A stretch of DNA of 62,992 nt, counting the filler, from Stramenopiles sp. TOSAG23-6 (Eukaryota), in NCBI GenBank assembly GCA_900128565.1. It is 9 parts of 9 records of this genome, joined end to end, with 100 filler letters (N's around TTAATTAATTAA, not from the genome) between each part and the next. Parts side by side here need not be neighbours in the genome. Positions count along the whole stretch, not along the records: positions 1 to 9,733 come from LT636355.1; 8 more parts are not named here. One strand, given 5' to 3'. Made by a program: the position numbers and the translations under genes. The notes below the pieces were generated by a model. That model made no database searches, was not told the DNA's origin, and saw only the letters and a program-made list of their open reading frames with translations. Of the stretch, positions 1-29,419 are shown piece after piece; positions within the stretch are counted from its first letter, which is position 1; every line of letters begins with the position of its first letter.

Positions 1-2291
1 TTCGACCGTCTTCATCCCAATCCATGTGTTTTGGAAAAATATTTCAAAAAAAAAAAATCGTTAGGTACAAAATTTCGTACGAAAAAAAAACGAATTTGAA
101 AAAAAATTAAAACATACATCATCATTGCAGCAGCTTTTAGAACACCACCACCACCACCACCACCACTATCAGGAAATTGATCATCTTTTTTCACACCACT
201 AACATTTTGTAGAAACAAAAGTGGATGTATTGTGAAAAATATTGTTTTGTAAAAAAATCGTTAGGTACAAAATTCCGTACGAAAAAACTTAAATTTGAAA
301 TTCATTGTGAAAACGTACAATATCTCGATTCTCGCAAAGATTAACAAATTGAGCCCCTTTTCGAGCTCCTTGAGCACATAGCAATGTTTCACTATTTGCA
401 ATAATACCTACTGGGTTACCATTAATTTCAGAAAACCCAGTCATTAGAGAATTCCCATATGGATTATGAAAAAATATTTCAAAAACATCTAAAAAAAAAT
501 GTTACGTACAAAATTTTTTTACCAAAAAAAAAAAATACAAATTCGAAATTAAAATGAAAACGTACACTCGCCTTTACATTCTCGAAAAATAGAATCATCC
601 ACAATTCTACTAATTATTGCTTCCATTTCGGGTCTTTTAATTAAAGAAGAATCATTTGGTGGAATTAAATGTAGTAAATCTATAAGCTTTAATTTGGGTT
701 CTGTCACAGAATCTTTTCGCTTCCATAATTTTTGTATCTTTGAATCATATATTGTAAAAAAATATTTTTTTTCTTTAAGAAAAAAAAATTTAGGTACAAA
801 ATTACATACGAAAAAAAAAAAAAATTCAACATTCATGATGAAAACGTATGTAATTTGTTTCTTCAATCAGTTCTCGAACCATTCTCGAAGCATCTAACTC
901 ATCCACTGCCAATTGATCAGTTAAACCAGACCATGAACGGTAAAAAAAAACAATTTCAGAAAAACAAAAAAAATGTTAGGTACGAAATTTCGTATGAAAA
1001 AAAAAANAANTNAAANTNCATAATGAAAATGTACATGAGCAGTGAACGCGTGCACCACCTAAATCTTCGGCAGTTACAATTTCACCTGTAGCTGCTGCAA
1101 CTAGAGGAGGTCCACCTAAAAATATTGTGCCAATTTTGTCCACAATTATGTTTGCATCTGCCATGGCTGGGACGTATGTATTGTGAAAAAAAAATATATA
1201 TAAAAATCATTAGGTATAAAATTTGGTACGAAATATTTTTTTTCCAATTTTTTTTTTTCGAAAAAAAAAGTGAACCTACATGCCCCACCGGCAGTGCAAG
1301 AGCCTGAAACGACTGCAACAGACGGTATACCACGAGATGACATAATAGCTTCATTATAAAACACACGGCCTCCATGGATTATGAAAAAATATTTCAATAA
1401 AAATTCGTTAGGTACAAAATTTCGTACGAAAAAAAAATTCGAAATCGAAAAAAAAATAAAACAAACATGATCTCGGTCAGGAAATATATCTGCTTGGAGC
1501 GGAAGGAACGCTCCCCCCGAATCAACAAGATAGATGTTTTGAATGAAAATATTTCAAAAATTTGATTTTTTTTTTGTTAGGTACAAAATTAACTACGAAA
1601 AAAAATAAATTGAAATGATATAAATAAACATACATAACTGGTAAGTCATTTTCCATTGCGACTTCCTGTGCTCTGTTATTTATGAGATTTTAAGATGATT
1701 TGAGATTGTGAGTCACATGTGTAAAAATAGTAGTATGATACACTATATCACAAATATAGCAGAAATATTTCAGAAAATTGTACAAAGTATTAAAAAAAAA
1801 TGGATTGTGATGAAATACCGCAATTGTTTCTTTACCCCAATGGGGAAAAGAGTACCACCCTTTACCGTTGCATCATTCGCAATAATCATGCAATCTATGC
1901 CACTGACTTGACCAATACCAGCAACAACACCAGCAGAAGGAACTGTCATTCGTGGCTTTCCAGGTCCTTGTGAATATAACTCAAGTCCAGCCAAAGGTGC
2001 AAGCTCCAAGAATTCAGAATTTGCGTCTAGAACCATACGGATTCTATCACGAGGAAGAATTTTTTTGTTCTTCTTGACATGTCGTTCTATAGCTTTCTCT
2101 CCACCCCCGAGGAATGCCACATTAATATGTTTCGAAAGTTCCTCTTTCAAAGCTTTGTTTTTTTTTAAATTATCATTTTGTGAAACACAGTTTAGATCAA
2201 CCGCAGGACCACTTAAAACTTTAAAACGCGATGAAAACGTAGACGTCGAGAATCCACGAGTCAAACGAATCCTAACATTAATTCTCCACAT
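1..2291 (-). CDS. MCCC2: Methylcrotonyl-CoA carboxylase beta-type carboxyltransferase, 3'-truncated; exons 2291-1819, 1672-1634, 1533-1467, 1373-1280, 1175-1035, 932-850, 746-566, 458-319, 224-118, 23-<1
   Basis: The spliced translation gives [63 protein letters not shown] and IPLLFLQN. The N-terminus resembles a mitochondrial presequence. All exon phases are consistent. Confidence 0.9.
24..117 (-). mobile_element. Introner-like family intron, GT-AT, 94 nt
   Basis: AT|GTATGTTTT...TTTCGTACGAAATTTTGTACCTAAC...AAAACACAT|G. Confidence 0.8.
225..318 (-). mobile_element. Introner-like family intron, GT-AT, 94 nt
   Basis: Removal gives GAT ATT|CCA CTT (D-I-P-L-L-F-L-Q-N). Confidence 0.9.
459..565 (-). 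mobile_element. Introner-like family intron, GT-AT, 107 nt
   Basis: Removal gives GAG T|AT GGG (E-Y-G). An internal AG at 489-490 would also be in frame but would insert 10 aa. Confidence 0.8.
747..849 (-). mobile_element. Introner-like family intron, AT-AT variant, 103 nt
   Basis: TAC|ATACGTTTTC...ACAATATAT|GAT keeps the frame between the flanking exons. Confidence 0.75.
933..1034 (-). mobile_element. Introner-like family intron, GT-AT, 102 nt
   Basis: Removal gives VHCS-W-SGLTD. Confidence 0.85.
1176..1279 (-). mobile_element. Introner-like family intron, GT-AT, 104 nt
   Basis: Removal gives GCA T|AC GTC and restores TAGGAYVPAM. Confidence 0.9.
1374..1466 (-). mobile_element. Introner-like family intron, GT-AT, 93 nt
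   Basis: Removal gives CAT|GGA and restores [13 protein letters not shown]. Confidence 0.9.
1534..1633 (-). mobile_element. Introner-like family intron, GT-AT, 100 nt
   Basis: Removal gives AT|C and restores [11 protein letters not shown]. Confidence 0.9.
1673..1818 (-). other. Canonical GT-AG intron, 146 nt
   Basis: CG|GTATTT...AACAG|A restores KKQLRAQE. Confidence 0.85.
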
Positions 2292-2534
2292 TATATTTTG
2301 TTGTAGACTTAATAAAGTTGATGAATTATCAGTTAGTACATGACATTGTTTGATTTTATTCCATTAATGATTATTATGTTGGAAAAAAAGAACAAGACTT
2401 CAAAAAGTGCCTGATTGGCCAAAATTTGATTTGCCATCCATCAAATGATTCAAATCGGCAATCAGCGCTCACTCGCATCATCTCGATTAAACTACCTGAC
2501 CTCAGGCAACTAACAGCAGACATTCGCTTTTCTG

Positions 2535-5099
2535 ATGACGAATCCATGTAACTGCGCTAAATATATCGTTTACATTTGCATCTTTGTCTTGTTCAGTTCT
2601 ACCCACTCTATGCAGATCAATTCTACACAAGCAGACGCTGACGCGACCGCTGACGCCAGTGCTGGCCCAAGCGAGTCAATGTTGACACAGTTAGGTCTAC
2701 GGTTGGGTGTAGTTTCATATGTTAAGCAAGTCAAACCTGAAGAAGCCGAACCTGAACCCGAAGATCATGCTATCGAAGCAAAAGGAGTCTCGGTCGACAA
2801 TAATGAACATATTCTTCAAACTTTCATTAGTCTTTGCGTTAGAGTATCGTTGAGTCACTATGATGCATATAAGATTGAACCGGAAAAGTATGGATACACT
2901 CAACAAGACATGGTCTATGATGAGGAAGTAGATCTAGAAGCAAGTATCAGGCGTGACTGGTGGTACATTGTGGATAAGACTAGAAATGAATCTAATGGAA
3001 GCAAAATTAGAGAGAGAAAAGAAGCAAACGAAGACGTCATTTTTCCTCCGTGGATTGTAGCTCTTTTAGGTCCAATTAGAGGCCCCATAATGAGTCATTT
3101 CGTCAAAGAAATTCGAAACTTTGAACGTCTGGATGATCAAAAATTGGAAATACCTAGGCCAGTACTGGATAAAATCATTCCTTGGAGTATTGATCATCGC
3201 GCTGGAGTCTTCAATCGATCCGAACGCAGAGGTTTAGTCTTATGGACGGGTTACTCATCCAGTGGTTTAAAAGAGAGTCGGCGACATATGATGTACTTCA
3301 AAAGCTATATCAAACGCTTAGCTGAGTCAGGGGTTTTTGGGACGTACTTGTTTAATAATAATTTGGATGATCCTCATTATCATTCAACCCCGATGTCGTT
3401 AATCGCGAAGCATCCTGCAATTCAACGTTGGGGTCTAGGTCTTTCATGGATGCCAAGACCTAATGGTTCTACCCAGTTCTGGCATTATGTGAGCAGAGCA
3501 TTCATTGAAGGGACTGACACCACTAATGTGAAAGATGTTTTCATACAGATATTTCCGCGTCCGGATAAGGTTCTTGAAGAGACAATTCTCGTACGCTTCG
3601 AATTACCAGCGCTTGCCCGAAAAATTAATAAGGGGTACAAACCCAAAATCAAGATTGTCGTCTCATTGGATGAAGGTTCAACGGCAAAGCTCGAGTCTGG
3701 TGCAGAATTGAGTTTGGGAGATATTAGTGGATTCATCAAAAAGTGCATCATTGGGACAATAGAAAAGCTTCCTGTACCAGAAATTTCAAAGGAAGAAATA
3801 GATCAATTTTGGAATGAAAATGTCACAACTGTTGATGCAACATTTGACACATTAAATGCCATATGGGAAACAGGAGGATATCCTCCTGTGGCATCTCTGT
3901 TAAAGAAAGAGAGAGCTAAGGATAGAGAAGAACTAGTCAAAACTCTTTTCGAGCCTTCAATTGAGAAAATGACGCGTTTTGCAGGATGGCGTAAAAAAGA
4001 CAATATTCACTTAAAAATGGATATTGCAAAAGTGAATGATTATGTGACGACAGACGGTAGAGCTATTGAAGTGTTTGTCAATGAGTGCCGTACTCCATCT
4101 ACTCAAAGGATTGCAAATGTACGCAATCAGTCAGGCGAATTAATGGAGGTACTTGTTATAGTGAATGTTATGCCATGGTCGCTCGGATGGCGTGCATGGT
4201 ATGTGCTTGAAGATAGTGCTGGCTCATTGACACTATTTGAGTACTTTTTAGAAAATGATGCTGCTGTTCGTCAAAATATGGATCGAGGATATCTGCGTAT
4301 TGGCGATTTATTAATGGGTTCAGACAGTGTTCAAACGCATCTTTGGCAACCTGAACCGAAGCCTCTACCTCTCGATGACTATCTCAAAGGCGATGGCCTT
4401 TCTGAAAATCAATTTCTTGGCATATTTTCGAGTGTTTTGAAGTTTGCTCCAGGTAAATCGCTTTGGCGAAACCGAGCAAGGGAAGAGATTATACAGCTTG
4501 AATTTATTCTCAACGGGGAGTATTCAAAAATGTCTGCTGTAATTAACCCTGAATTAGATGAAACCTGCACTGTTGGTGATACCCTGCGCATGGTTGGTAA
4601 TGGGGGTGTGTTGCTACCAAGGGGTTCCAAAGGTGTTGTAATCATGGATGGCAACCAAACATATATTCGTTTTAATGATGTCAATAGTCAGGAACAAAAT
4701 GTTGTGGTTTCAACAAAAGAAAACTTCGACCAGACACTTTTCCAGAAAACGTTCGGATCATCTCGAAGCTTCAAAGTTACTCATTATGCACTTCGTATTG
4801 GACGTTGGAGTCCTGAGGCAAATTGGGATGCCTCGAAGACAGCGAATGTACAGTCAGATCTTGGAATGGATGAAAACAAACTGTTTCTCATCATTGCTTT
4901 ACGGTTACAAGTTGGTTGGAGGTTCATGTATTACAATGAAAAATGGAAACAGTTGCATGAGTATGAAGTAAACATGTCTTTTGATCATAATATGGGAGAT
5001 TTATTGAAGTCTGAAGTAATACCACTTGTAGGCTACCCTATTCATAGATGGCGCCATCGAGATGATTTTTATAGGACTGACCTCCCATGGCACTCATAG
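2535..5099 (+). CDS. Hypothetical protein, 854 aa, probable signal peptide, intronless
   Basis: Long open ORF with a hydrophobic N-terminal segment (YIVYICIFVLFSSTHS); no family recognised. Confidence 0.75.
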   Translation: MTNPCNCAKYIVYICIFVLFSSTHSMQINSTQADADATADASAGPSESMLTQLGLRLGVVSYVKQVKPEEAEPEPEDHAIEAKGVSVDNNEHILQTFISLCVRVSLSHYDAYKIEPEKYGYTQQDMVYDEEVDLEASIRRDWWYIVDKTRNESNGSKIRERKEANEDVIFPPWIVALLGPIRGPIMSHFVKEIRNFERLDDQKLEIPRPVLDKIIPWSIDHRAGVFNRSERRGLVLWTGYSSSGLKESRRHMMYFKSYIKRLAESGVFGTYLFNNNLDDPHYHSTPMSLIAKHPAIQRWGLGLSWMPRPNGSTQFWHYVSRAFIEGTDTTNVKDVFIQIFPRPDKVLEETILVRFELPALARKINKGYKPKIKIVVSLDEGSTAKLESGAELSLGDISGFIKKCIIGTIEKLPVPEISKEEIDQFWNENVTTVDATFDTLNAIWETGGYPPVASLLKKERAKDREELVKTLFEPSIEKMTRFAGWRKKDNIHLKMDIAKVNDYVTTDGRAIEVFVNECRTPSTQRIANVRNQSGELMEVLVIVNVMPWSLGWRAWYVLEDSAGSLTLFEYFLENDAAVRQNMDRGYLRIGDLLMGSDSVQTHLWQPEPKPLPLDDYLKGDGLSENQFLGIFSSVLKFAPGKSLWRNRAREEIIQLEFILNGEYSKMSAVINPELDETCTVGDTLRMVGNGGVLLPRGSKGVVIMDGNQTYIRFNDVNSQEQNVVVSTKENFDQTLFQKTFGSSRSFKVTHYALRIGRWSPEANWDASKTANVQSDLGMDENKLFLIIALRLQVGWRFMYYNEKWKQLHEYEVNMSFDHNMGDLLKSEVIPLVGYPIHRWRHRDDFYRTDLPWHS

Positions 5100-5104
5100 A
5101 TAAA

Positions 5105-5692
5105 TTATGATTTCTTTTTCTTCTTTTTCTTCTTCTTACGTCTTTTGAGGTGGTTTCGAGGTGGTGGTGTAAGGATAGTCACTTCTTCCATCTGAATCAC
5201 TCCATCAAACAATGAAAGAGGCTCAGGGGTAGATCCTTGTTCTGTTCCATCATGACCAAAATATTCATTGCTGAGTCGATTCATGGCGTCATTGCTAGTG
5301 GGAATTTCTTGATCTTTATCCATTTTTTCGTCTTGCTTCGCTGCTGCCAGGTATTCTGCAAACATTTTACGAGCCTCAAATGCATCTTCACCATCATTTT
5401 CCCTGTTTTGCTGCTTTGTTGTGGATATTGTCTCTGCTATTTTACTTTCCAACATTTTACGCACCTCAATTGCACCTTCATCTTCATTTTCCCTGTTTTG
5501 TTGCTCTCTTTTCGATATTGGCTCCGCTATTAAGTTTTTACTTTCTGATTCATCATCAGAACTTGCTTCAAATGGATACACATCTATATTTTGGGGTTTG
5601 CTTTTAACTCGGAAATAGCGTTCGCGTTTCACAATAATACAAAGAGAAATCACAATTAATGCAGGGACTATTGTCCATAAATAGGCCTTCAT
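5105..5692 (-). CDS. Hypothetical protein, 195 aa, N-terminal membrane anchor, internal duplication, basic tail
   Basis: ORF with a hydrophobic N-terminus and a twice-repeated IAE.IS...QQNREN..E.A.E.RKM segment. Confidence 0.6.
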   Translation of the reverse strand: MKAYLWTIVPALIVISLCIIVKRERYFRVKSKPQNIDVYPFEASSDDESESKNLIAEPISKREQQNRENEDEGAIEVRKMLESKIAETISTTKQQNRENDGEDAFEARKMFAEYLAAAKQDEKMDKDQEIPTSNDAMNRLSNEYFGHDGTEQGSTPEPLSLFDGVIQMEEVTILTPPPRNHLKRRKKKKKKKKKS

Positions 5693-5958
5693 GTGGAATT
5701 ATGATTTCCGTAAGTTTGTATTTGAAGTATTTATAATATGGTATCAATTTGCAAAAGTAGCAAATCTTGATAGCCAATAATGTGGCCAACGTGGCAACGT
5801 CAGATGTGACCGGGTCAATCTGCTATCAAGTTCTGATTCTGAACCAACCCACCAGTCCTATTAGAGCAAAGAAGCACTATAGCGATTCGCGATGAAGGAA
5901 TGACTCTTTGGAGGTTGTTCATTACTGGTAGTAATACTGGTTTAACTGTGTCTTTTGT

Positions 5959-6993
5959 ATGCCTAATATGAGTTATTTAAAAGGTGTGATGTTAATCTTT
6001 TGGGGTGTGGTCCTTAGTTTTCTGATAGTTTTGATAGTCTTTGTGCCTCAGAATTCTCCACTTCGTGGACTTCTCAATCACGGAAAAACCAGAGTTTTAA
6101 AGAGAACTATTGAACCCTCCATTCTATCACAATTTTTGAATATGAGTGTCAGCAAATGTTACTTTGCCCACTTTTACATATTTGGTATTGTCTGGCATAT
6201 TTGCGTCGTTGCTTGGTTTGTTCACTTAATCGTGACAACTCCTGGAAATTTATGTTCTGTAATGCTTAAAAGAGAATGCCTCTTTTCTATTTCGTTAGTG
6301 ATGATAAGTTATTTTCTTCATATTTTGCGAAGAGCTCTAGAAACAATTCCCATGATTAATGGATCTGTAGTTAATCTTAAACATGGAGAAATGCATATAT
6401 GCCATTATTGCTATGGTATGCTTTTTTATTTTGCTATGCCTCTTACTTACATTGCCCACCCTGAGTTGACACAGGAAATATTTAATACAAAAGAAAACGC
6501 GTCATGCAAATTTATAATGTATGAATTAATCTACAGTGTACAGATAAAGCATGTATTAGGCATACTTATGTTTTTTTATGCCAGTGTACATCAGTATCGG
6601 TGTCACAGAATTTTGTATAATATGAAAAAGTCAATGATTATCAAACGAGTTGAAAGAGGATACAAAAAATGTAGCCTTTTTTATGATATACAAGATCAGG
6701 AAACAACAATGAGTATACAAAGCAATACATTGAGCAAAATAGTATACAATAAGTATGCCATTCCTTTTGGTGACTGGTTTAGTTTGGTATCAAATCCTCA
6801 CTTTCTGGCTGAAATACTCATTTATCTTAGCCTCGCTGTTATAAGTCCGGGAAATTTGTGTGTGTGGTTAGCATTGGCTAGTGTAATATGTAATTTGACA
6901 TGCAGTGCGGCGCAAAACCACACCTGGTATAAGAATACTTTCAAAGAGCTTTATCCAAAGCACCGCCGAGCTTTAGTCCCACTTATATTTTAA
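5959..6993 (+). CDS. SRD5A3: Polyprenol reductase / steroid 5-alpha-reductase 3 family
   Basis: HGKT, FAHFY, RRALE, HQYRCH, IPFGDWFSLVSNPHFLAEILIY and YPKHRRALVP motifs; multiple transmembrane segments. Confidence 0.85.
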   Translation: MPNMSYLKGVMLIFWGVVLSFLIVLIVFVPQNSPLRGLLNHGKTRVLKRTIEPSILSQFLNMSVSKCYFAHFYIFGIVWHICVVAWFVHLIVTTPGNLCSVMLKRECLFSISLVMISYFLHILRRALETIPMINGSVVNLKHGEMHICHYCYGMLFYFAMPLTYIAHPELTQEIFNTKENASCKFIMYELIYSVQIKHVLGILMFFYASVHQYRCHRILYNMKKSMIIKRVERGYKKCSLFYDIQDQETTMSIQSNTLSKIVYNKYAIPFGDWFSLVSNPHFLAEILIYLSLAVISPGNLCVWLALASVICNLTCSAAQNHTWYKNTFKELYPKHRRALVPLIF

Positions 6994-8610: not shown

Positions 8611-9733
<1,123 letters not shown>

Positions 9734-9833
9734 NNNNNNNNNNNNNNNNNNNNNNNNNNNNNNNNNNNNNNNNNNNNTTAATTAATTAANNNNNNNNNNN
9801 NNNNNNNNNNNNNNNNNNNNNNNNNNNNNNNNN
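9734..9833. other. Artificial contig linker; also at 19532-19631, 29320-29419, 39100-39199, 48852-48951, 58596-58695, 60063-60162 and 61529-61628
   Basis: Identical 100-nt N-run/TTAATTAATTAA/N-run spacer with stops in all frames; contig lengths decrease in order. Confidence 0.97.
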
Positions 9834-9863: not shown

Positions 9864-12800
9864 TTATGAATCAATTACAGCAGCAACACCTTTAATTTGG
9901 CTTGCATCAACACCTTGTTGTTCTTTTGCAAATCCAAGGAATATTTGTTCAAGTGTTGTTTGTCCAACACAATATTCACTTAGTCCAAGGGCATCTTTAT
10001 TACGTTCCAAGAGGCCAAATACTTTTCCAAGAGGAACCTTTGTGTCATTTCCAACATCCATACTACCACCATTATTACCCATACTACCACCATTATTACC
10101 AATACTACCACCATTATTACCAATACTACCACCATTATTACCCATACTACCACCATTATTACTACCACCATTATTACCAATACTACCAACATTATTACTA
10201 CCACCATTATTACCAACACCCATACTACCATTATCAACATCCTCACTAAATGGTAAAGAAAGACGTAACGAATTACCATGTTGTTCAACTAAAACAGCAT
10301 CAGGTGATATATTTTGTTTACACCAAGCAAGTAAATTATCAAGTACATCTTCTGCAATCCACCACTCAATAAATGATGGTACATNAACACTATTTTGCTG
10401 CAAAAGNAGATCTTGTAACACCCATGAAGATGATCCAGGTATACTGAATGATTCATATCGTGCAGCGTTACCTAGTTGTTGACATGCATTTAAAAGTTGA
10501 TTTGAAGGTATTTTTAAGTCTGTAGCACTTTGTGCACCGTCAATATTTCCTGTTGTATTTGTTTTTATATTTCCTACACAAAGTGACTGAATTGCTGTAA
10601 TTAATTGTACACTTTTCTCTCGACTACCTGGAGCAACGCGAACTTCTAATTGATATCCATGTCCATATCTATCCTTTAAATGCTGCTCTGATCCAATGCA
10701 CCGTAATCGACCATCCACCATGATTCCAATACGGGTACAAAGCGCAGAACATTCTTCCATTGAATGAGTCGTCAAGATAATAGTAGCCTCCCTATTCTGT
10801 GTTGATATTTCTGATATGAGAGACCACATGAAACGTTTTGCCACTGGATCCATTCCTGCTGATGGTTCATCCAGAAAGATAATTGGTGGTGCACCAATTA
10901 ATGCAATGGCTACACATAATTTACGTTTATTTCCTCCAGATAATGATCCAGCAGATTTATCTGCAAACTCAACTAAATCCATCTTTTTAATTTTCTCTTC
11001 AATCTCCATATTCAATGAATCGCCTTGAACACCTTTAATCATTCCGAATATTCTTAAATGCTGTCGAACAGTCACCTTTGGTAACAATGCATTGTGTTGC
11101 GGACAATAACCAATAAGTCGTCGGACTGCAATCTGCTCACTTAATATATCTCGGCCACCCATAGCTGCCGTACCAACAGTAGGTAAATGATCACCACTCA
11201 ACATTCGAAATACTGTCGTTTTGCCGGCACCATTTGTACCTAAAAATCCAAACACTTCACCACGTTTAATACCAAACCACATATCTTTAACAGCAACCTT
11301 TTTAAACCTTTTTCCATCTTTATTTTTTGATCTAAATACCTTTCGAAGTCCGCGTGCTTCCACCATATTCTTACCAATCGATTGTTCCTTCACACGATTC
11401 CGTTCATTTATAACATCGGCATCTTCACCGTGAAATGGAGCATCAACAATATTCGGTTCCATACATGAACACAAAAAGCGTTGTATAGAAGGTAGAGATA
11501 AGACAATATCAATTGTAAATGCAAGTAACGGAAAGAGTATTGCACCCAACAACATACCGCGTATTTCAGGCCATGCAACTGCTTCATCCATGCCAGATAC
11601 TGGAGCTGTACTGTTATAACATGATGTTGTAATATTCACAGTACATTCACGACAATTTAAAGGGAGATCCGCATGATACTCTGTCGAACCTTGAGGTGCG
11701 CCAGCAATAAATCCCTTTTTTACAAGATCTCTTGGACACACAAGACATTGGTGGTACTGAGAAGCAAGAAATCCTTTCAATGCTAATGAAAAGAATGCAG
11801 ACGGTAAGGCAAATTGAGGAAGGAAACTTACAAATTTCTTTGACCAAAAACCATACTTACAAGTACTTTCAACAAGCTGTAACGTTCCCATTACAATACA
11901 CAATACTATACTCATCACACCAATACTTATTGTAACTGTAACAGCTGTACTGGGTGACTTGAACAAGTATGAAGTTAAATATGATAATCCAAATACAGCT
12001 GGACCATACAAAAGTATTGCAAGTCTTGTTGCATCCCAATTATCATCAGCAGTCGTTGTATATGCAGTTAAATCTTCATCCCAAATATTAAATATCAATA
12101 TGGTCCCCCATGCAGGAATCATATACAACAACACATCCCATAACCATGCTGTAAACCAATATGCTGTCAATGATACACCAGACACCAATTGTTGATGTTT
12201 GAAACCCAATGATCTCTCACGTACAATAAATTCAATCACGGGTGCTGGAATAAATGAAAAGGCTAAACCAATTAAAAATACGACAACAAAAGTTAAATTT
12301 GCTTTCTGTTCATCTTCCAATTTAATTGTTAATGGTAATGGATGAAGTGTTACATCAATTGTTCCAGCATTTCCAGGGTCAAACATTTTCCAAAATGATG
12401 ATGATAATATAGACTGAAATAATGGAACACCAAATGTCGCTGTTGAATTTGTCATTAAAAGCAAATTATAGAAATTATCATCTGGTACTGAACCTTTTAG
12501 TCCTTCTATTGGCGGCAAAATACCCCATGCGCCATATATACTATCAGGCCTCTCGGATTTCAAATTCAACATCCACTTCGATGTTGCACATTGCCAAGAG
12601 CCTGAATCGTCAGCGCCTGCACAAACATCAGTTGTCCAATTATTATCATCACCTCCGCCCTCTTGATCGCCATACAATGAAGATGAACATATTTCGCCCG
12701 AATACTTTGTAATTAAATCAGTGAAACTAGTACTACTGTCTACATAATGACTACCCTGTAAACTGCTACCTTTTGTTCCTACGGTTGTTCGTGCTGTTTT

Positions 12801-15800
12801 CATTGCAACAGATTCGGATGTGCCTACATATGCATTTGGAAATAAAGAAGAACCTGCCTTCATACTACCAGACCCACGAGGGTTATATGCACCTGTTGAT
12901 GGCGTGATTGCACTATAATATGGATTAGATGTTGTCAAGGCATACAGACCAAGTGTTACAAGTAATAAAGGCAATACAACCATAAATAATATTGATTTCA
13001 TATCTCTAATAAACCAATAAAATCGTTTCATAAGCATCGCTAGAATATGTAATCCTAATGAAAAAGAACTTGATGTACTGCGCTTCTTTATCTCTTTGTT
13101 AAATGCCAATGTATTTTGGCGAACTAGCTTCTTTTTTGCACCATTTATTTCATGTTTGGTATTTGTTTCGTTATTATCAACTACCTTTTGATTATTATCA
13201 GTACTTTTTACATCATCATTATATTTTTCTTCTTTTGCAACAATACCTGTATCTTTACTTTTACTAACACTTGCTTGTTTCCTATGTGCCCCTTGCGCTG
13301 ACTTGATAAATACTTCTTCTACTGTTGTTACACTGACATTAAATGTCTCTAATTTATTTGGATCTTTTGCTTTTAACTGTTCCAATTCTGTAAACAAAGC
13401 CTCAAACGAATGACTCGCGCCAAGCGGCAATTGAAAAGAAAGTTCTTGGCCGAAATTACTCAATACTTTAGCTTCGGGTACATATTTTTGTACCAACAAA
13501 GTAAGATCATCAAGACACGTAGATGATGTAGCAAGATTAGGTGCCGTACATATCATAGAATATCCTACACCATACCGCTGTTTAAGAAACATTGGAGTAC
13601 CGCAACATATCATCCGACCTTCAGACATAATACCAATGCGATCAGCTAATACATCAGCTTCTTCCATTGAATGTGTTGTTAATAAAATGATACGACCCTG
13701 TTTCGATTTTTGTAACATATTCCACGTTGAACGTTGAGCAAATACATCCATTCCACTTGTTGGTTCATCAAGCATCAGTACAGGTGAATTGCCTATTAAA
13801 GCAATAGCAAGACACGCCTTTCGCTTTTGTCCTCCAGATAAATTACTTGTCTTTGCATGTGTCTTCTCAGTCAATGCTACGCCATCTAATACCTCCTTGA
13901 TTGCAGAGTCGCGTTTGGCCTTTGGTACGAGCTTTATATTTGCATATAACTGTAAATGTTCATTCACTGTTAGTTCATCATATAAAACATTCATCTGCGG
14001 ACAAATTCCCATTAGTTTACGAATCTCTGTCATTTGATTACGTATTGATAAACCAAATATCGTTGCATCACCTGACGATGGGGCAATAAGACCACATAGT
14101 TGAGAAATTGTAGTCGTTTTACCTGCGCCATTATGACCCAACAATACAAATATTTCGCCCTTGAAAAATGCTGCATGTAAATTATCAGTGGCTACTTTTA
14201 TACTCCCATCAGCAGTTTGAAATTGTTTCGTTAAACCTCTAACATGCACACAATCATTTCGATGTAATAATGCTTCCTGCTGTTTACTGAGGCGTTCAAA
14301 ATTTTCAGTATCAGTATATGTTTGATCGCCATATAATAGCTCAATATCATTAGCATCCACTAGATCTTGCTTTTCATGTTGACTTTCGATATCATTTATA
14401 GTATCAACGCTTTTAGACTGGTCAACAGGTGTCACAGATGATGAGCATTTTGAGTAAAACGATGGTAGTAAACAAAACCATGGAGGTGATCGTATACCAA
14501 ATTCTGAAGGCAAAATTCGAGATAAATACATACCCAACACAACCCAAATTCCTGCTCCAATGTATAACATCTGCATTGCCAAACCCATACTATAATTTTC
14601 TTGTAAATCATAATACGATGACCATGTTACTGGTACAAATTTACCATTGACCAGTTTACAATAATCAATTGCTAAGCCTAGTCCTGTTGCTGGGAGTAAC
14701 GAACAGAGAGCTTTCAATGATACAGACCATGTAGGTTTCACAGCAAATGTTGGAATAAATCCCACAAAGAAACTTACAGCACCAATAACTGCAGCTGTAC
14801 CTGCTTTATCGAAGCATTGTGATACCATAAAGCAGAAGCATGAAGCATTCAATCCAAACCCAAAAAATAAGAAAAACATCATCAATATTGGAACATCAAA
14901 TAAGCCATCAATAACATCTTTTGTCAATAATATTGCGCATATTACACTATGAAATGTAAACCGTTTCATATATGATGCAATCCATGATACTGCCACTGAG
15001 GAAGGAAATAATCCCATCATTTTCATACCTTCACGAATACGTGATTCTTTCTCGTATACTAACCGTTTCACCATAAAAAAAACTGGTATAGTAAATGCCA
15101 CAACAAATAAGGTAGTCATAATCTCAGGAATTGGACTCGCATAAAATGGATCAGTCCTGAATTCAGTTGATGGAAATGGAGTCACTCGAATACTTTGAGG
15201 GAAATATGTGTGAATCTTCATGAAATCAAACATGGCTTTATCAATTTCTGTTTGCTTATCTTTTGCAAGTAATCCATATGCTGTATCAAATGCTTGGTGA
15301 TAAGATGTTTTTGTATCCGCGCCATCGAGACCAATCATTGTTTTTATTGCTTTCTTATGCTCATCATTGCCTAAACTTCCGTATCCACATTTATCATTAT
15401 CCCAATCACATCGACGATATTCCCAATAACACTCACAGCTACTGGGACCTCGACAGTTCCTTTCACATGATTCTTCAGTCATATATGACACAGATTCTGC
15501 TGCTTTACCAGTACCTGCAGGACAAGCTTTCTCCGAGTCTTGTGTCGGCGCCTTGCATTTATCTGCATCACGCCAATGGATTTTACATTTATAATTCTTT
15601 TCGTGAAATAAAGCGCCACCAAATACGGATAGATTACACACTGCAGCAAGTGAATCAAGATATGTTGTCACCTGATTATCAATGTCTTTCTGATCACATA
15701 TACCATAATCAAGTAATGTTGATGGTGTTGCATTCTTCAGCTGCTTGTTAATATAATATTTATCTACTAGTAACTGTATTGTAGATAATGCAGGTAATGG

Positions 15801-17369
15801 ATAAGCATGTGTCATTGTTGTTATCTTCCCATCTTTAAATGTACAAGGTTTCATTACATTTTTTTCCCAATATTCATTACATTCCCATTGCGATTTATCA
15901 CATGTTGTCATATCAAGACTTGTATGAAGATACATGAATGGCATTGATCGTGTACCGCGCTCAAGAGATACTTCAGGGTCGGTGGACGCTGGTAGAAATA
16001 TCTCCTCACCTTTTGATTGTGGACGAATTGTATAACTTACATCACCATTGGATGATTTTGTAAACGATAAACCAAATATTATACGGGGCTGCTGAGGTGA
16101 CTCACCATGTCCCTGCTGACGTACAGCTGCATCTACTGCACTCGAGGACTCAAATATTTGTATTTGATCCGCAAGTGAAGGCACATTCATTGAAGTAAAC
16201 TGTTTTGACGTAAACACATTATCAAAATCAATACCAGGTATTACTGTTTTTACCCAAGCATGAAACGCTTTTGTCTCTGCATTATTTGGATACAATGCAA
16301 TTATAAAATTATTATCTTTCATTGTCGAGGCTTGTAATTCTAAGCGTTGCGTCCAACCTCGATTTCTATACCTTTCGTAATCATTCTTCGAATTCGTGCT
16401 TGTGCATACTTGTTTATTTCCTCGAACTTTTGCAATTTCTTGCTTGACTGAAGTCCAGGGGTGCTTTGTTGGATCGTGAATGAGTCCACCTCCAAATCCA
16501 AGACCTAAGCCGACAGATGGAGCACCTCCGTTATAGCTACCACGTTGAAACTCATTGCCCCACTTCCAACCATTGTGCCAAAATCCAGGCTCAATCCAAG
16601 ACGGTAACCATTGTGGTAATATATTCCAAGCTACTCCCTCTGATGGTACACTCATTTCACACTGTTGTGACTTTTGATCACAATACTTTCTTGCATTGTT
16701 ACCATTGCGTAGCTCCCAATTTTGTGTATTTGGATCAGGCCATATATATTGATTTGTTATATCATCGCAAATATTCACACAACGCCCAATAGTCCATTTA
16801 TGACCTTTACCTTCACAATCTTCTTTGCTACTGTGGTTTCCGTTCGTTGGTTTTGGACTACCTCCAATGACGGCGCCATTTGAGTCTGTACAAAGTCCTC
16901 TTCCATGACAATTGTTATCTTTATTATGGTCCCAATGATTATAGTCACACTTCCATTCACATCCTGATTTAGTATTACATGCATTTACGTCACTTATCAA
17001 GGATGGAGCAGAACATACTGTAGCCGTCTTTTGTATACATCGAGCTGCTTTTAAACTATCATCTTTATATGTGTTTTGCAACAAGAAATACACCACTGTA
17101 AATAGGCCAATAAAAAATAAAGGACATAATAACTCACAACATAATGCACAACAATGACGTCTACTAATTTTTGAATTTTTCGTTGTTAAAGCTCGCACGT
17201 GTGTTATCCACGCTTTTGCTGCAGATTCTTGAGGCTTTGACAAACTCTGTTGAATTACATCGTTTTGAGACTCACCGTTTACTCCAGAATCGGGTGGTAA
17301 AGCTGAAATTTCAATTTCACGTGTCTCCAATTGATCCTTTATGTTTTTGTTTGATACTTTAGCTTCCAT
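9864..17369 (-). CDS. ABCA-family full transporter, 2501 aa, intronless
   Basis: Two TMD-NBD halves: GHNGAGKTT/LSGGQKRK/LDEPTSGMD and GTNGAGKTT/LSGGNKRK/LDEPSAGMD, EKESRIREGMKMMG and QTTLEQIF. Confidence 0.95.
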   Translation of the reverse strand: MEAKVSNKNIKDQLETREIEISALPPDSGVNGESQNDVIQQSLSKPQESAAKAWITHVRALTTKNSKISRRHCCALCCELLCPLFFIGLFTVVYFLLQNTYKDDSLKAARCIQKTATVCSAPSLISDVNACNTKSGCEWKCDYNHWDHNKDNNCHGRGLCTDSNGAVIGGSPKPTNGNHSSKEDCEGKGHKWTIGRCVNICDDITNQYIWPDPNTQNWELRNGNNARKYCDQKSQQCEMSVPSEGVAWNILPQWLPSWIEPGFWHNGWKWGNEFQRGSYNGGAPSVGLGLGFGGGLIHDPTKHPWTSVKQEIAKVRGNKQVCTSTNSKNDYERYRNRGWTQRLELQASTMKDNNFIIALYPNNAETKAFHAWVKTVIPGIDFDNVFTSKQFTSMNVPSLADQIQIFESSSAVDAAVRQQGHGESPQQPRIIFGLSFTKSSNGDVSYTIRPQSKGEEIFLPASTDPEVSLERGTRSMPFMYLHTSLDMTTCDKSQWECNEYWEKNVMKPCTFKDGKITTMTHAYPLPALSTIQLLVDKYYINKQLKNATPSTLLDYGICDQKDIDNQVTTYLDSLAAVCNLSVFGGALFHEKNYKCKIHWRDADKCKAPTQDSEKACPAGTGKAAESVSYMTEESCERNCRGPSSCECYWEYRRCDWDNDKCGYGSLGNDEHKKAIKTMIGLDGADTKTSYHQAFDTAYGLLAKDKQTEIDKAMFDFMKIHTYFPQSIRVTPFPSTEFRTDPFYASPIPEIMTTLFVVAFTIPVFFMVKRLVYEKESRIREGMKMMGLFPSSVAVSWIASYMKRFTFHSVICAILLTKDVIDGLFDVPILMMFFLFFGFGLNASCFCFMVSQCFDKAGTAAVIGAVSFFVGFIPTFAVKPTWSVSLKALCSLLPATGLGLAIDYCKLVNGKFVPVTWSSYYDLQENYSMGLAMQMLYIGAGIWVVLGMYLSRILPSEFGIRSPPWFCLLPSFYSKCSSSVTPVDQSKSVDTINDIESQHEKQDLVDANDIELLYGDQTYTDTENFERLSKQQEALLHRNDCVHVRGLTKQFQTADGSIKVATDNLHAAFFKGEIFVLLGHNGAGKTTTISQLCGLIAPSSGDATIFGLSIRNQMTEIRKLMGICPQMNVLYDELTVNEHLQLYANIKLVPKAKRDSAIKEVLDGVALTEKTHAKTSNLSGGQKRKACLAIALIGNSPVLMLDEPTSGMDVFAQRSTWNMLQKSKQGRIILLTTHSMEEADVLADRIGIMSEGRMICCGTPMFLKQRYGVGYSMICTAPNLATSSTCLDDLTLLVQKYVPEAKVLSNFGQELSFQLPLGASHSFEALFTELEQLKAKDPNKLETFNVSVTTVEEVFIKSAQGAHRKQASVSKSKDTGIVAKEEKYNDDVKSTDNNQKVVDNNETNTKHEINGAKKKLVRQNTLAFNKEIKKRSTSSSFSLGLHILAMLMKRFYWFIRDMKSILFMVVLPLLLVTLGLYALTTSNPYYSAITPSTGAYNPRGSGSMKAGSSLFPNAYVGTSESVAMKTARTTVGTKGSSLQGSHYVDSSTSFTDLITKYSGEICSSSLYGDQEGGGDDNNWTTDVCAGADDSGSWQCATSKWMLNLKSERPDSIYGAWGILPPIEGLKGSVPDDNFYNLLLMTNSTATFGVPLFQSILSSSFWKMFDPGNAGTIDVTLHPLPLTIKLEDEQKANLTFVVVFLIGLAFSFIPAPVIEFIVRERSLGFKHQQLVSGVSLTAYWFTAWLWDVLLYMIPAWGTILIFNIWDEDLTAYTTTADDNWDATRLAILLYGPAVFGLSYLTSYLFKSPSTAVTVTISIGVMSIVLCIVMGTLQLVESTCKYGFWSKKFVSFLPQFALPSAFFSLALKGFLASQYHQCLVCPRDLVKKGFIAGAPQGSTEYHADLPLNCRECTVNITTSCYNSTAPVSGMDEAVAWPEIRGMLLGAILFPLLAFTIDIVLSLPSIQRFLCSCMEPNIVDAPFHGEDADVINERNRVKEQSIGKNMVEARGLRKVFRSKNKDGKRFKKVAVKDMWFGIKRGEVFGFLGTNGAGKTTVFRMLSGDHLPTVGTAAMGGRDILSEQIAVRRLIGYCPQHNALLPKVTVRQHLRIFGMIKGVQGDSLNMEIEEKIKKMDLVEFADKSAGSLSGGNKRKLCVAIALIGAPPIIFLDEPSAGMDPVAKRFMWSLISEISTQNREATIILTTHSMEECSALCTRIGIMVDGRLRCIGSEQHLKDRYGHGYQLEVRVAPGSREKSVQLITAIQSLCVGNIKTNTTGNIDGAQSATDLKIPSNQLLNACQQLGNAARYESFSIPGSSSWVLQDXLLQQNSVXVPSFIEWWIAEDVLDNLLAWCKQNISPDAVLVEQHGNSLRLSLPFSEDVDNGSMGVGNNGGSNNVGSIGNNGGSNNGGSMGNNGGSIGNNGGSIGNNGGSMGNNGGSMDVGNDTKVPLGKVFGLLERNKDALGLSEYCVGQTTLEQIFLGFAKEQQGVDASQIKGVAAVIDS
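10058..10231 (-). repeat. 21-24 nt coding tandem repeat (GNNGGS[M/I]) in the ABCA C-terminus
   Basis: Repeated CATACTACCACCATTATTACC units. Confidence 0.85.
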
Positions 17370-17903
17370 TTTGCAACCTTTGTAATAAAAGTGCCAGATT
17401 ATTTAAAAACTAGAACGAAACAAAATCAAAAGATAGTGTAGTAGACTCTGTTCAAGAAGCCAATTGGTCGCAGCTTATATAGATACGTTTGCGATACGTT
17501 TTAAGGGCCGGTCTCCGCTAAGAGATCGGCCGCGGACATCAAATCGGGTCGCACTATAACGTANCACTTTCATTTTTTCCTTATCGAACGTGTCTCTACG
17601 ATTCAGTAACGTGATAATTATATTGTATAAAAAGTTGTGTTGACCCTTCCTATAGGTCTTATAAAGATCTCCAGGTATTGGCCTTGCTGTAGGTTATTTC
17701 TATCTTTTGCTATTAGTATTAACCTAGTCTCCCTTCATTATACCTCAACCACATATTCAGAATCTACGCGCAAGTTTATATTCTAAGCATAGTTAGACTC
17801 CTATCACTGTTTAGTGCAATTATCTATCAAAAGTCAGTGCCAATACCATTTGCTGTAGCGCCATATATTTTTTTTTGCCCAAAAGTGTTGAGATTAGGTG
17901 AAT

Positions 17904-19531
17904 ATGCCTAATAAGCGACAGCATCAACCTAATTCCGGAAGAACACCAGGATCGAAGAAATCTAGGAGTGTCCTTGGAGCCACTTATCTGAAAAATTGTC
18001 CAGCTGGTGGACAATGTGCGGCTATAAGGTGTCATAACGATGTGTCAAAGACATGGTATGATGTTCTCAACAACAGAACAGATCTCCAAAGTATTTGTCC
18101 AATAAATATTCATGCTGGTCGTCATTTTGTCTGTTTCGGTTGCGCACAAAGTGCAAATATTGGTCAAGTTGTAAGTTGAGTGTACATCTTCATTTTTTAC
18201 TGTACGAACTCGATTTTTTAATATGTTGTACCTAACTATACAATAACCATTCTGTACTAGGCCTGAGTTCTAACTAATCGGCATTCAATTTATATATTCA
18301 TTTTTTTGTAGGGTGCTGAATTATGGTGCAGTAGAAAAGGCTGTAGTCATGGCCCGTGCGGAAAGGCTGCAATACTTGGAAAAAAAATGACAAATTGGCC
18401 CGGCAAAAGTGGTAAATTATGTCAGCTAAAGTCGTTACCAATGAATTGGGTAGTGAACAGAGCAAATTTAGTAAGAAGCACGAGGCCTGAATTATATAAC
18501 GGAAAAGTATGTCAATGCTGCTTTTCTGATTTCTTGGCTGAACATCGTTTAAAGGAGAACGAAAGAAATCGTGTCAATGAGTCCACCAAAAGAGCAGCAA
18601 GAAGACTGAAAACGAGTATAAAAAATAGTCAAACTCAGGTGTCTGATTCTGGTCACAAAGAAGATGTCCCTGTTGCAGCTGTTGACAATGGTACATTGGA
18701 AAAACATAATCAGCTAACACCGCATGATGATCAGCTAACACCGCGTGCTACTAGTACTAGTAGTTGTAACAGTCCCACACACCCCAAAACGCCTGTTGCA
18801 TCTAGAAGAGTTAATATTGATCGTAGTAGTACTGAAAGTGATAGTAGTACAGTAATTAATAGTAGTGTGGTGAGTGATATTCATTTAGTAGTAGATGGTG
18901 AAATTTCTTTACAATCACCAATTGTGCCTATCAGAACACCTTTGGACACAAATAGTAATAATATTGATGATAGTAGAAATAGTATTAGTGATTATAGTGT
19001 AGTAAGAGCAACAAATAATAATAATAATGATAATAGCACCAAAATTAGTAATAATAATAGCAATGTAATTAGTAATATTATTAATAAAAAAAATGATAAC
19101 CATAATCCATCTATGGTTTTATCAACCACCCCATCACGTCCCAAAACCAAAAACTCTGCTACTTTTCGCACAGCTGGGAAAATATTTGATAAAAAGCACA
19201 AAACGACAAGATATAAAAAAGCCACACCATTAAGCAAAAATGCACCAGGACGTCTAGCAAGAAAATCTACATTGATGCAACGAAAAAGTCAAAGTAAAGT
19301 GTATCTTGACTTGGACAATTTACCAGCAGATCTTACAGGGTCAATAACAGTTGAAACCCATTTAATCTTAGAAGAATGGACAAAACAAACATGCCCCAAT
19401 TGCCAATTCACAGGAGATGATAATGGTCATGTCTTTTCATTCCATCATCATGAGTGGAAAAGTTGTGTTTGTTTTAATTTTTTTTCAAATTCGAATTTTT
19501 TTTCGTACGAAATTTTGTACCTAACGATTTT
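17904..19531 (+). CDS. Cys-rich hypothetical protein, 3'-truncated; exons 17904-18170 and 18312-19466
   Basis: A canonical GTAAGT...TGTAG intron (18171-18311) joins two ORFs in frame; several CxxC clusters and an N/S-rich linker. Confidence 0.65.
19467..19531 (+). mobile_element. Introner-like family copy truncated by contig end
   Basis: GTTTGTTTT, CAAATTCGAATTT and the core motif. Confidence 0.8.
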
Positions 19532-20116
19532 NNNNNNNNNNNNNNNNNNNNNNNNNNNNNNNNNNNNNNNNNNNNTTAATTAATTAANNNNNNNNNNNNN
19601 NNNNNNNNNNNNNNNNNNNNNNNNNNNNNNNACAATATAGTTAGAGCTTCTTTTTCCAATAAATTACGATGTTTCACTTCTACACGCCTTAACCATTCGG
19701 CACAGGTTTCGTTTTCTTTTTTTGTAAAGGTTGTTTCTACGTTGAAGCGAACAGAACTTTCAAAAAACATTCTGAAAACTCTTTTAACACGGTCATAGTA
19801 GTACAGTACTGCGTCACTCAATACAATAATGCCTCTCGAAGGAGTCGTTATATTATTATTATTGTGAATTGCAGTTTTCTAAAAATGTATACAGTGTTCT
19901 ACGTACAAAAAAGTGGTATTGAATCCAAAGATACGTAGAACGCTGAATGTATAGCAATATGTAAAGCATTAAAAGAAATACAAAACATCTTAAATTAAAT
20001 TCGTTTATTTAACTGTACACTGTACACATTGTAAAAGTATATAGATCTAAATTGTACCTATCATAATTATTAAGTTCTCACATCCTTCTAGAATAAATTA
20101 TAAACATCAAAGATCA

Positions 20117-29319: not shown

Positions 29320-29419
29320 NNNNNNNNNNNNNNNNNNNNNNNNNNNNNNNNNNNNNNNNNNNNTTAATTAATTAANNNNNNNNNNNNNNNNNNNNNNNNN
29401 NNNNNNNNNNNNNNNNNNN

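Follow-up and report, generated by a model that had tools for sequence, protein, structure and literature searches.

The repeat at positions 1176-1281 (minus strand) of a 62,992-base stretch of DNA from Stramenopiles sp. TOSAG23-6 (assembly GCA_900128565.1; the whole stretch is hereafter the window) appears to be a member of a high-copy, introner-like family of introns that bring their own splice sites, including a non-canonical CAT acceptor, and that show a preference for sites of the form (C)AT/G(TA), with no demonstrable target-site duplication (TSD); throughout, a slash marks a splice junction or insertion site. We put the probability of this interpretation at roughly 0.6. The focal copy (copy 6 in the numbering used here), read in the sense direction as ggggcAT/GTAGGT...CAATACAT/acgtcc, lies inside a gene for a methylcrotonyl-CoA carboxylase beta-like carboxyltransferase, for which human MCCC2 is the best match among solved structures, and includes the following parts:

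1176-1279, minus strand: focal intron, 104 nt, GTAGGT...CAATACAT; its removal joins SGSCTAGGA + Y + VPAMADAN in one frame; profile E = 5e-15.
1280-1281, minus strand: exonic AT before the focal intron, read directly; it completes the Ala codon GCA and opens the Tyr codon T/AC.
1214-1229, minus strand: central palindrome of the focal intron (family consensus GTACGAAATTTYGTAC), with 3 mismatches in this copy.
1209-1214, minus strand: branch-like CCTAAT (family consensus CCTAAC) immediately 3' of the palindrome; similar to tttcctaac of an ordinary intron in a Rab gene of the window.

A scan of the window with the 16-nt palindromic core of the family, GTACGAAATTTCGTAC, yields 33 matches at 3 or fewer mismatches, compared with 0.38 expected, and a profile built from 27 copies yields 39 matches. 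The window consists of 9 contigs, ordered by decreasing length (six of about 9.7 kb and three of about 1.4 kb) and joined by N44-TTAATTAATTAA-N44 linkers at 9734-9833, 19532-19631, 29320-29419, 39100-39199, 48852-48951, 58596-58695, 60063-60162 and 61529-61628. One piece, 48952-58595 (9,644 bases, centre near 53774), is 100% identical to its own reverse complement and is most likely an amplification or assembly chimera or artefact; four repeat copies are therefore mirror duplicates, several open reading frames (ORFs) are doubled and raw window counts are inflated, the unique sequence surveyed being about 57 kb of one genome. Subtraction of the 4 mirror images and merging of the two introns with two matches each leaves 33 distinct copies; the 5' junction can be read in 30 of these, the 3' junction in 25 and both in 23 (complete copies). 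These copies are AT-rich, 88-207 nt long (typically 88-121 nt) and about 80% conserved between copies at intron positions that look unconstrained. Four contig ends (mirrored ones excluded) sit within a copy, indicating that the repeat breaks the assembly. The 5' and 3' end types co-vary as subfamilies, GTATGT occurring with CAAAATACAT and GTACGT with CACAATACAT or CATAATCCAT. An Rfam scan of the window and a scan of a 21-nt core against JGI metagenome data each return 0 matches.

The 33 copies are spread over about 20 unrelated genes at non-homologous positions, i.e., they show the many similar copies by which introners are recognized, and all three intron phases (0, 1 and 2) are represented. 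Orientation is sense in 31 of 32 copies as judged by the length of the flanking ORFs, and in the remaining one (copy 4) as judged by gene homology, with 0 of 32 antisense; the sole copy outside an ORF is partial (copy 20). The MCCC2-like gene alone carries eight family copies and one ordinary GT-AG intron, and the window as a whole contains 33 family copies versus 2 ordinary introns identified. The introner-like behaviour that a previous reading of this DNA (hereafter, the sequence-only reading) ascribed to the repeats is supported.

The junctions themselves show a distinct pattern. Of the 30 unique 5' junctions, 16 are preceded by exonic AT and 24 by exonic T, with A at -2 in 19 and C at -3 in 11, against coding background frequencies of 0.097, 0.299, 0.326 and 0.167, respectively, derived from 26 long window ORFs that include mirrored and possibly some chance ORFs (p = 2e-9, 2e-8, 5e-4 and 7e-3). 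The earlier counts of 18 AT and 26 T among 33 junctions are reproduced as 18/34 and 26/34 once the four mirror copies are included, and the excess of AT and T over the coding background that they implied is borne out for the window at unique junctions. On the other side, the downstream exon is biased to G at +1 (14/25, p = 1e-4), T at +2 (10/25) and A at +3 (13/25), with GT in 7/25 (p = 6e-4). The intron starts with G in 29/30 and has T at +2 in 30/30; its last two bases are AT in 22/25, AC in 2/25 and AG in 1/25, with A at -2 in 25/25 and C at -3 in 23/25. Thus, the upstream exon tends to finish like the intron 3' end (CAT), and the downstream exon to begin like the 5' end (GTA). Generally, C at -3 and A at -2 are favoured also by ordinary U1 pairing; the C/A preference therefore fits such pairing, which leaves the T at -1 as the real oddity.

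In the sense direction, the consensus reads GTAYGTTTT, a T-rich stretch, CGTACGAAATTTTGTAC, CCTAAC, a T-tract and (C/A)AATACAT. Where copies are 88-121 nt long, the branch-like motif precedes the 3' end by 32-50 nt; CCTAAC resembles tttcctaac, found 38 nt upstream of the AG in the Rab intron, one of the two ordinary introns:

1673-1818, minus strand: ordinary GT-AG intron in the MCCC2-like gene, gcg/GTATTT..AACAG/ag; the exon ends VKKQLR, as in human MCCC2, and the next exon reads AQEVAMEN.
33774-34072, minus strand: ordinary GT-AG intron in the Rab gene, cta/GTAAGT..CACAG/cg, 299 nt; spliced in RNA contigs of two runs from two studies.

When 22 complete copies are removed one by one in the GT..AT register, the frames on either side stay open over long stretches (for copy 7, the right-hand frame was judged by homology), and removal of copy 13 with its 3' end at 28198 also keeps the frame; two alternative 3' ends of copy 13, at 28147 (motif scan) and at 28111, were replaced by 28198 on the strength of likeness to copy 31 and homologue length. 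Conserved residues are restored upon removal of copies 2, 3 and 14. The copies that bear on the exact position of the cut are:

225-318, minus strand: copy 2, att/GT..ACAT/cca, with exon-final ATT encoding an Ile that is aligned with Ile in 8j4z_J and 4q0g_A; a -2 slide gives Asn.
459-565, minus strand: copy 3, gagt/GT..CCAT/atggg; the Tyr of E-Y-G is conserved in 3/3 printed alignments, and a +1 slide gives Cys.
20716-20804, minus strand: copy 12, cat/GT..ACAG/ct, the sole AG-ending copy, in an AMP-binding/NAD_binding_4 gene.
28021-28198, plus strand: copy 13, cct/GT..GTACAC/gg, 178 nt, ending ..CTGTACAC/gg; the 3' end, placed by likeness to copy 31 and homologue length, is not certain.
28419-28510, plus strand: copy 14, tcg/GTGCG..CCAT/gtgcg, the register-deciding junction; the homologue P0121 has Arg, and -1 and -2 slides give Leu and Met.
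30926-31021, plus strand: copy 18, caa/GT..CAGTACAT/cc, in a VPS13-like gene; a CAG 5 nt upstream is skipped.
32000-32103, plus strand: copy 19, cgt/GT..ACAT/ca; a +1 slide gives a stop codon.
36064-36174, minus strand: copy 22, aat/GT..ACAT/ta; a +1 slide gives a stop codon.
59264-59384, minus strand: copy 31, att/GT..CAGTACAT/gt, in an amino-acid permease gene; a CAG 5 nt upstream is skipped.

In 16/30 copies, the same mRNA results under three registers, GT..AT (register 0), TG..CA (-1) and AT..AC (-2), so that, owing to the AT redundancy, most junctions cannot separate them. Copy 14 is informative because P0121, a WD40 homologue with 47-58% identity, reads QVHHQLVSIARCGDKLLVGSLG over the junction (...VSIARCGDKLLVG). 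The exons encode QVHHQLVSVS + x + CGDKLLVGSLA, a block in which 19 of 22 residues are identical to P0121, and the residue x is Arg (CG/G), as in P0121, at register 0, Leu at -1 and Met at -2; registers +1 to +5 yield an identical mRNA, GTGCG being repeated. In copy 2, register -2 replaces the conserved Ile, which matches both human MCCC2 and Mycobacterium tuberculosis AccD1, with Asn, and register +1 turns the Tyr of copy 3, conserved in all three printed alignments, into Cys and introduces a stop codon in copies 19 and 22. The Arg of copy 14 excludes TG..CA, the Ile of copy 2 excludes AT..AC, and copies 3, 19 and 22 exclude later registers; GT...A(T/C/G) alone is compatible with all the copies. 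The shift by one base to TG...CA that the sequence-only reading considered is therefore not borne out, since copy 14 would then encode Leu where P0121 has Arg. Copies 18 (Thr at register 0, Ser at -1) and 12 (Ser versus Ala) do not discriminate between the two: a search with the VPS13-like exon protein of copy 18 among entries of near length gave 0 matches, and an exhaustive representative search for copy 18 found relatives with at most 55% identity, whose alignments start at least 3 residues past the junction, and none ending near the donor. Likewise, a comparison of the WD40 exon with solved structures identified generic repeats only, and a comparison of the exon after copy 2 with solved structures gave no useful match for the Pro that follows the Ile.

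Taken together, these features are compatible with a mechanism in which each copy supplies the 5' splice site GTAYGTTTT, a palindrome that may form a weak hairpin, then the branch-like CCTAAC, a T-rich tract and, 32-50 nt past the branch motif, its own 3' end CA(T). The transcript would be cut at GT...A(T/C/G), probably by the U2-type (major) spliceosome, which would perform a normal first step, tolerate a last base other than G and pick the acceptor at CA-N by position. Insertion would occur at sites that resemble the joined ends of the element, with C-A-T upstream and G-T-A downstream. The stronger proposition, namely that a non-AG (CA-T/C/G) acceptor is used routinely, being chosen by position despite a CAG 5 nt upstream, and that unit-length copies spread without duplication into CAT/GTA-like sites, is put forward only tentatively, and we consider it rather unlikely to hold in full.

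Several observations weigh against the interpretation of the family as introns with a CAT acceptor and a site preference. The GT...AT cut rests on reading frames and homology; the choice between registers 0 and -1 is decided by a single junction (copy 14) and a single homologue of 47-58% identity, and in copy 13 register -1 (Arg) is at least as natural as register 0 (Trp). An AG is present between the branch motif and the proposed acceptor in 8/21 complete AT/AC-ending copies with a located motif, and copy 18, in which the pattern missed the branch motif, ends CACAGTACAT. Copies 18 and 31 each carry a good CAG 5 nt upstream, the use of which would shift the frame, so that only the CAT site keeps it; an ordinary spliceosome would be expected to use such upstream AGs. 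The dyad symmetry of the ends, the centre and some inner blocks, together with the AT bias, is also what one would expect of a miniature inverted-repeat transposable element (MITE) with an AT duplication. The survey is further limited to 57 kb of one genome. Finally, no RNA contig joins exons over any family intron in the 4 runs compared over 29420-38841, a comparison that had no family-junction coverage able to judge cut sites, and one contig (29621-29786) is unspliced over the 3' junction of copy 17.

Parts of a neighbouring contig occur in ten seawater metatranscriptome runs of 3 studies. In the 4 runs compared, exon bins have a summed depth of about 0-7 (27 in one bin), and bins with family copies reach 1,992-6,827 in two of the runs; the repeat-bearing bins at 29420-29734 and 35405-36349 span about 740 to 6,800 in two poly(A) or total-RNA seawater libraries. 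The family is therefore very abundant in RNA libraries, and its high depth may reflect many transcribed copies, unspliced RNA or retention, stability after excision, or DNA carry-over. RNA folds predicted for 6 copies contain only a 6-bp central hairpin in some, with z between -1.0 and +0.4 in 5/6, and none of the 6 shows the end-to-end helix that characterizes euglenid nonconventional introns.

Among the alternatives, the one that survives best, although we consider it improbable, is that of the sequence-only reading, i.e., a MITE-like DNA transposon of the form GTAY...ATAC that duplicates an AT target, with the second AT co-opted as the acceptor. The excess of AT before the junctions (16/30 against a background of 0.097) is in its favour, and so is the position of three exceptions (GAG T in copy 3, CCG T in copy 19 and GCC T in copy 13) at synonymous sites, which proved to be third codon positions as that reading stated. 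However, the test used in the introner literature, that is, a within-locus match beyond the shared consensus (PMC9860276, methods), gives no support when implemented as a shuffle over the 23 complete copies. Between the upstream exon and the intron 3' end, matches number 18 versus 18.3 expected at -1, 16 versus 16.0 at -2 and 11 versus 8.6 at -3 (p = 0.04, uncorrected over 12 tests); between the intron start and the downstream exon, the 23 copies show no excess of within-locus matches. Furthermore, 14/30 of the 5' flanks differ from AT, though ordinary intron positions are about 80% conserved, and in the nine complete copies with a non-AT flank (TT, GT, AC, CT, CG, AA, GT, GT and TT) the 3' end is nevertheless AT in 8 and AC in 1, repeating the copy's own flank in 0/9. 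The conserved Ile at copy 2 and Arg at copy 14 imply that the pre-insertion target there was not AT; indeed, the earlier statement that ATT/CCA at copy 2 cannot be an AT duplication holds, this Ile being conserved in the solved MCCC2 and AccD1 chains. Two other lengths were tried and rejected: a 4-bp ATGT duplication, for which both flanks fit in 3/23 complete copies, about the level of independence, and a 3-bp NAT duplication, with 2 copies for and at least 7 contrary. By the literature criterion, a duplication is at best ambiguous: it is not supported, although it may apply to some of the copies. The acceptor AT most plausibly belongs to the element itself, and the exonic (C)AT probably reflects a landing-site preference; the proposal that the acceptor is a co-opted TSD is accordingly not supported, with no within-locus match and AT or AC ends kept in 9/9 copies with a non-AT flank.

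The ends do read ATGTA...TACAT, as had been noted, and are inverted, which together with a weak overall dyad symmetry favours a MITE, but the claim of a terminal inverted repeat (TIR) stands only to this extent: the inverted ends ATGTA(T)/(A)TACAT amount to 5-6 bp, one side takes in the exonic AT, and the GTA is needed by the 5' splice site. The TIRs of cut-and-paste elements are usually 10 bp or more. When whole copies are aligned with their reverse complements, z ranges between -0.4 and 4.8 and averages 2.1 (19 related copies), most of the signal coming from the ends, the centre and a TCAAA..TCG / CGA..TTTGA block; this dyad symmetry is real but modest, and the element is no foldback, T being abundant in both of its halves on the sense strand. 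The absence of antisense copies (0/32), with one partial copy outside an ORF, also argues against a MITE, as does the lack of a transposase-like ORF in the window. In published work, DNA-transposon signatures are described for most introner families (PMC9860276), and ISL2EU transposons with a 2-bp duplication, 'typically AT', exist (PMC4122938); both points favour the MITE.

Somewhat less probable still is spread at the RNA level, whereby excised lariats or circles are reverse-spliced into transcripts and copied into the genome, the landing sites resembling spliced exon junctions. Sites that mimic CAT/GTA, with both exon flanks like the joined ends and no duplication found, would be expected if a circular or reverse-spliced intermediate, and not a cut-and-paste transposon, had been at work. 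The sense, genic placement of 32/32 copies (plus the partial one outside an ORF) points in the same direction, given that a crude random-DNA-insertion model expects about 7/33 intergenic copies (p = 0.004 for one or fewer), but DNA introners under selection also show a genic, sense bias. The summed family depths in the thousands in RNA libraries are compatible with this route as well, but may come from unspliced pre-mRNA or DNA carry-over, and no obvious function at the RNA level can be assigned to the 16-nt palindrome or the dyad symmetry, the folds being weak. Fungal introner-like elements without TSD or TIR have been interpreted in terms of such a route (PMC9860276). Within the preferred interpretation, that of an introner-like family with its own CAT acceptor, we slightly prefer, at little better than even odds, insertion at the DNA level, accompanied by little or no duplication, to an RNA route through reverse splicing or a circular intermediate.

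It is very improbable that the cuts are shifted, with true boundaries TG...CA (integrase-like) or AT...AC (minor-intron-like) and GT...AT an artefact of the AT redundancy. Apart from the copies in which the three registers are equivalent, this possibility draws on the CA at -3/-2, which is more constant than the final T, and on the plausible Arg that register -1 gives in copy 13; against it stand the Leu or Met in place of the homologue's Arg within the 19/22-identical block of copy 14, the Asn in place of the conserved Ile in copy 2, and, under register -1, a first intron base T in 24/30 only. U12-type introns have the 5' consensus RTATCCTT and a branch motif 10-20 nt before the 3' end. Neither GTAYGTTTT nor the branch distance of 32-50 nt fits this type, which was rejected.

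That the repeats are not introns at all, but recent gene-breaking insertions or products of faulty, amplified or chimeric assembly, is hardly credible: the 9.6-kb perfect palindrome, the contigs breaking inside copies, the one unspliced RNA contig and the lack of a spliced family junction in RNA contigs could be cited for it, but an essential-looking gene has 8 copies, about 20 genes carry copies, all sense, the copies are diverged (about 80% per-position conservation) with flanking ORFs open and conserved, and the family sequence is abundant in independent RNA data from 3 studies. Ciliate-type DNA excision was also dropped, in view of the standard genetic code, the repeat sequences in RNA and the ordinary introns of 146 and 299 nt.

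The remaining copies are as follows:

24-117, minus strand: copy 1, gat/GT..CACAT/gg; profile, junction reading and frame test.
747-849, minus strand: copy 4, variant tac/AT..ATAT/gat; the sole copy of 30 without G at +1.
933-1034, minus strand: copy 5, cat/GT..TCAT/gg, containing single Ns; frame test.
1374-1466, minus strand: copy 7, cat/GT..CCAT/gg; removal joins FPDRDH + GGRVFYNEA.
1534-1633, minus strand: copy 8, tat/GT..ACAT/ct; removal joins the flanking protein frames.
9490-9588, plus strand: copy 9, cat/GT..ACAT/gg, in a Cys/Met pyridoxal phosphate (PLP)-enzyme gene.
9656-9733, plus strand: copy 10, tac/GT.., truncated by the contig end; junction reading.
19467-19531, plus strand: copy 11, tgt/GT.., truncated by the contig end; junction reading.
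29262-29319, plus strand: copy 15, agt/GT.., truncated by the contig end; junction reading.
29420-29473, plus strand: copy 16, 3' part only, ..ATACAC/ga; junction reading.
29579-29669, plus strand: copy 17, tat/GT..ACAT/acat; RNA contig 29621-29786 is unspliced over its 3' junction.
35604-35702, plus strand: copy 20, partial, 5' end absent, within the short spacer that separates the convergent Brix and peptidase M20 genes; profile match.
35882-35969, minus strand: copy 21, aat/GT..ACAT/tg, in the peptidase M20 gene.
39232-39328, plus strand: copy 23, tat/GT..GATAT/gt; frame test.
43141-43302, plus strand: copy 24, ggt/GT..ACAT/gt, with a tandem-duplicated core; profile and frame test.
43477-43683, plus strand: copy 25, cat/GT..ACAT/gt, 207 nt, with repeated core pieces; profile and frame test.
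47561-47651, minus strand: copy 26, aat/GT..ACAT/ac; frame test.
58543-58595, plus strand: copy 27, tat/GT.., truncated by the contig end; mirror image at 48952-49004.
58361-58470, plus strand: copy 28, aat/GT..ACAT/gta; mirror image at 49077-49186.
53408-53483, plus strand: copy 29, cga/GTATTT.., 3' end undefined; mirror image at about 54064-54139.
53668-53749, plus strand: copy 30, ata/GT.., 5' end only, at the centre of the palindromic contig; mirror image at about 53798-53879.
60163-60257, plus strand: copy 32, 3' part only, ..TTACAT/gta; junction reading.
62907-62992, plus strand: copy 33, cat/GT.., truncated by the window end; junction reading.

Two kinds of variant occur among these. 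Copy 4 starts with ATACGT in place of GTACGT, ends in ATAT and has intact flanking exons; it could be an AT...AT intron that still functions, an inactive intron within an active gene or an error in the sequence. Copies 24 (162 nt) and 25 (207 nt) contain tandem repeats of the core and branch motif, which look like internal duplications, not nested elements.

The host genome, as sampled in the window, is gene-dense and AT-rich, with GC content ranging from 0.24 to 0.42. Its long ORFs, read with the standard genetic code, encode ordinary eukaryotic proteins, including the MCCC2-like carboxyltransferase, an ABC transporter, VPS13-like, Rab, Brix, WD40, RhoGAP and ankyrin proteins, and others. For the Brix ORF, the closest match, at 91% identity, is a EukProt entry with a label starting GSMAST32, subsequent matches having at most 68% identity, which hints, as far as the taxon is concerned, at a MAST-3-like marine stramenopile. 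The gene at 20117-24030 (minus strand) combines AMP-binding and NAD_binding_4 domains of the thioester-reductase type, perhaps a Lys2- or carboxylate-reductase-like enzyme, a combination that suggests a protist host rather than an animal. An ABC-A-type transporter ORF of 2,512 amino acids (9864-17402, minus strand) has zero introns, and the neighbouring 2.4-kb gene carries nine; the intron load is very uneven between genes.

Gene-invading intron families are the best current explanation of bursts of intron gain, and the cases of Fritillaria and Amoebophrya indicate that invasion can accompany a loosened splicing code, of which the family described here is likely a third kind: the donor and branch signals are textbook-like, only the last base of the acceptor is free, and most introns identified in the window belong to the family. 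Gene finders that demand AG would break or miss most genes in such genomes, depressing the gene counts and completeness scores of these abundant, uncultured grazers. The flanks offer a clean test of duplication versus site preference versus an RNA or circle route, a question still open for introners, and copies 18 and 31, with a CAG 5 nt before the frame-keeping CAT, are good test cases for acceptor choice.

No account of GT-AT introners, or of introns of this type in MAST-3 genomes, emerged from a literature search with supplements outside its scope; in one MAST single-cell genome paper, the intron passages concern gene prediction only (PMC5778133), and the relevant sections of a 2026 preprint on protist single-cell genomes do not mention such introns. 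The closest general parallel is with the introners of Micromonas, Aureococcus and dinoflagellates, which likewise consist of many near-identical short introns at unrelated positions and in all phases in aquatic hosts, some families carrying both splice sites; they differ in having an AG acceptor instead of CAT, and in the present family there is no locus-specific duplication and the inverted ends are limited to 5-6 bp. Where an introner flank is shared by all copies (e.g., AG/gy...ag), duplication is indistinguishable from site preference (PMC9860276, methods). An introner survey that started from annotated introns considered, according to its description of methods, 3' sites AG or AC only (PMC12130899), so that a family with a CAT acceptor would escape detection. 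Fungal introner-like elements resemble the present family in the lack of TSD and TIR, the strong genic bias and the proposed RNA route (PMC9860276; on intron-circle or reverse-splicing models, cf. PMC10996645); however, they are GT-AG introns, and a palindromic core with dyad symmetry is not among the features reported in the passages on them.

Several systems with non-canonical boundaries are more specifically similar. In Fritillaria borealis, MITE-derived introns have non-AG ends (AG-AC, AG-AT), the preceding exon repeats the intron 3' end (TAC) and GT-AG introns are a minority (review PMC11282704, section 6). Transposon-like introns, non-AG 3' ends, an exon repeating the intron 3' end and a GT-AG minority are thus shared, but the present family has a normal GTAYGT 5' end in place of AG, (C)AT as the repeated motif in place of TAC and a protist instead of an animal host, and it is a single dominant family, whereas Fritillaria boundaries are highly diverse; a U2AF duplication and changes in small nuclear RNA (snRNA) N6-methyladenosine (m6A) are described for Fritillaria in the abstract of a preprint (bioRxiv 10.1101/2025.08.15.670264). 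The parasitic dinoflagellates Amoebophrya, also marine protists, have multi-copy non-canonical introns with transposon hallmarks, namely variable TSDs of 3-5 nt and clear TIRs, with U1 snRNA seemingly missing (review PMC11282704); in contrast, the 5' site of the present family looks like a standard U1/U6-type site, and there is no variable duplication. In Physarum, U12-type introns of the form rtatctt...aagATAT with flanking TA have splice signals that double as short inverted repeats beside a dinucleotide repeat, as here, and GT-AT boundaries make up 17% of the non-canonical set (bioRxiv 10.1101/2020.10.12.336362, in part), but these carry the U12 motifs of the minor spliceosome, unlike the 5' motif and branch distance of the present family. 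ISL2EU (PHIS superfamily), characterized by a DDE transposase with THAP and a YqaJ-like second ORF, is the only group found in print with a 2-bp duplication 'typically AT' (PMC4122938), and it differs in that the window contains no ISL2EU-like transposase, THAP or YqaJ ORF and the present family no demonstrable duplication. By its predicted signals, then, the combination of textbook donor and branch motifs with a CAT acceptor appears to set this family apart from all the systems compared.

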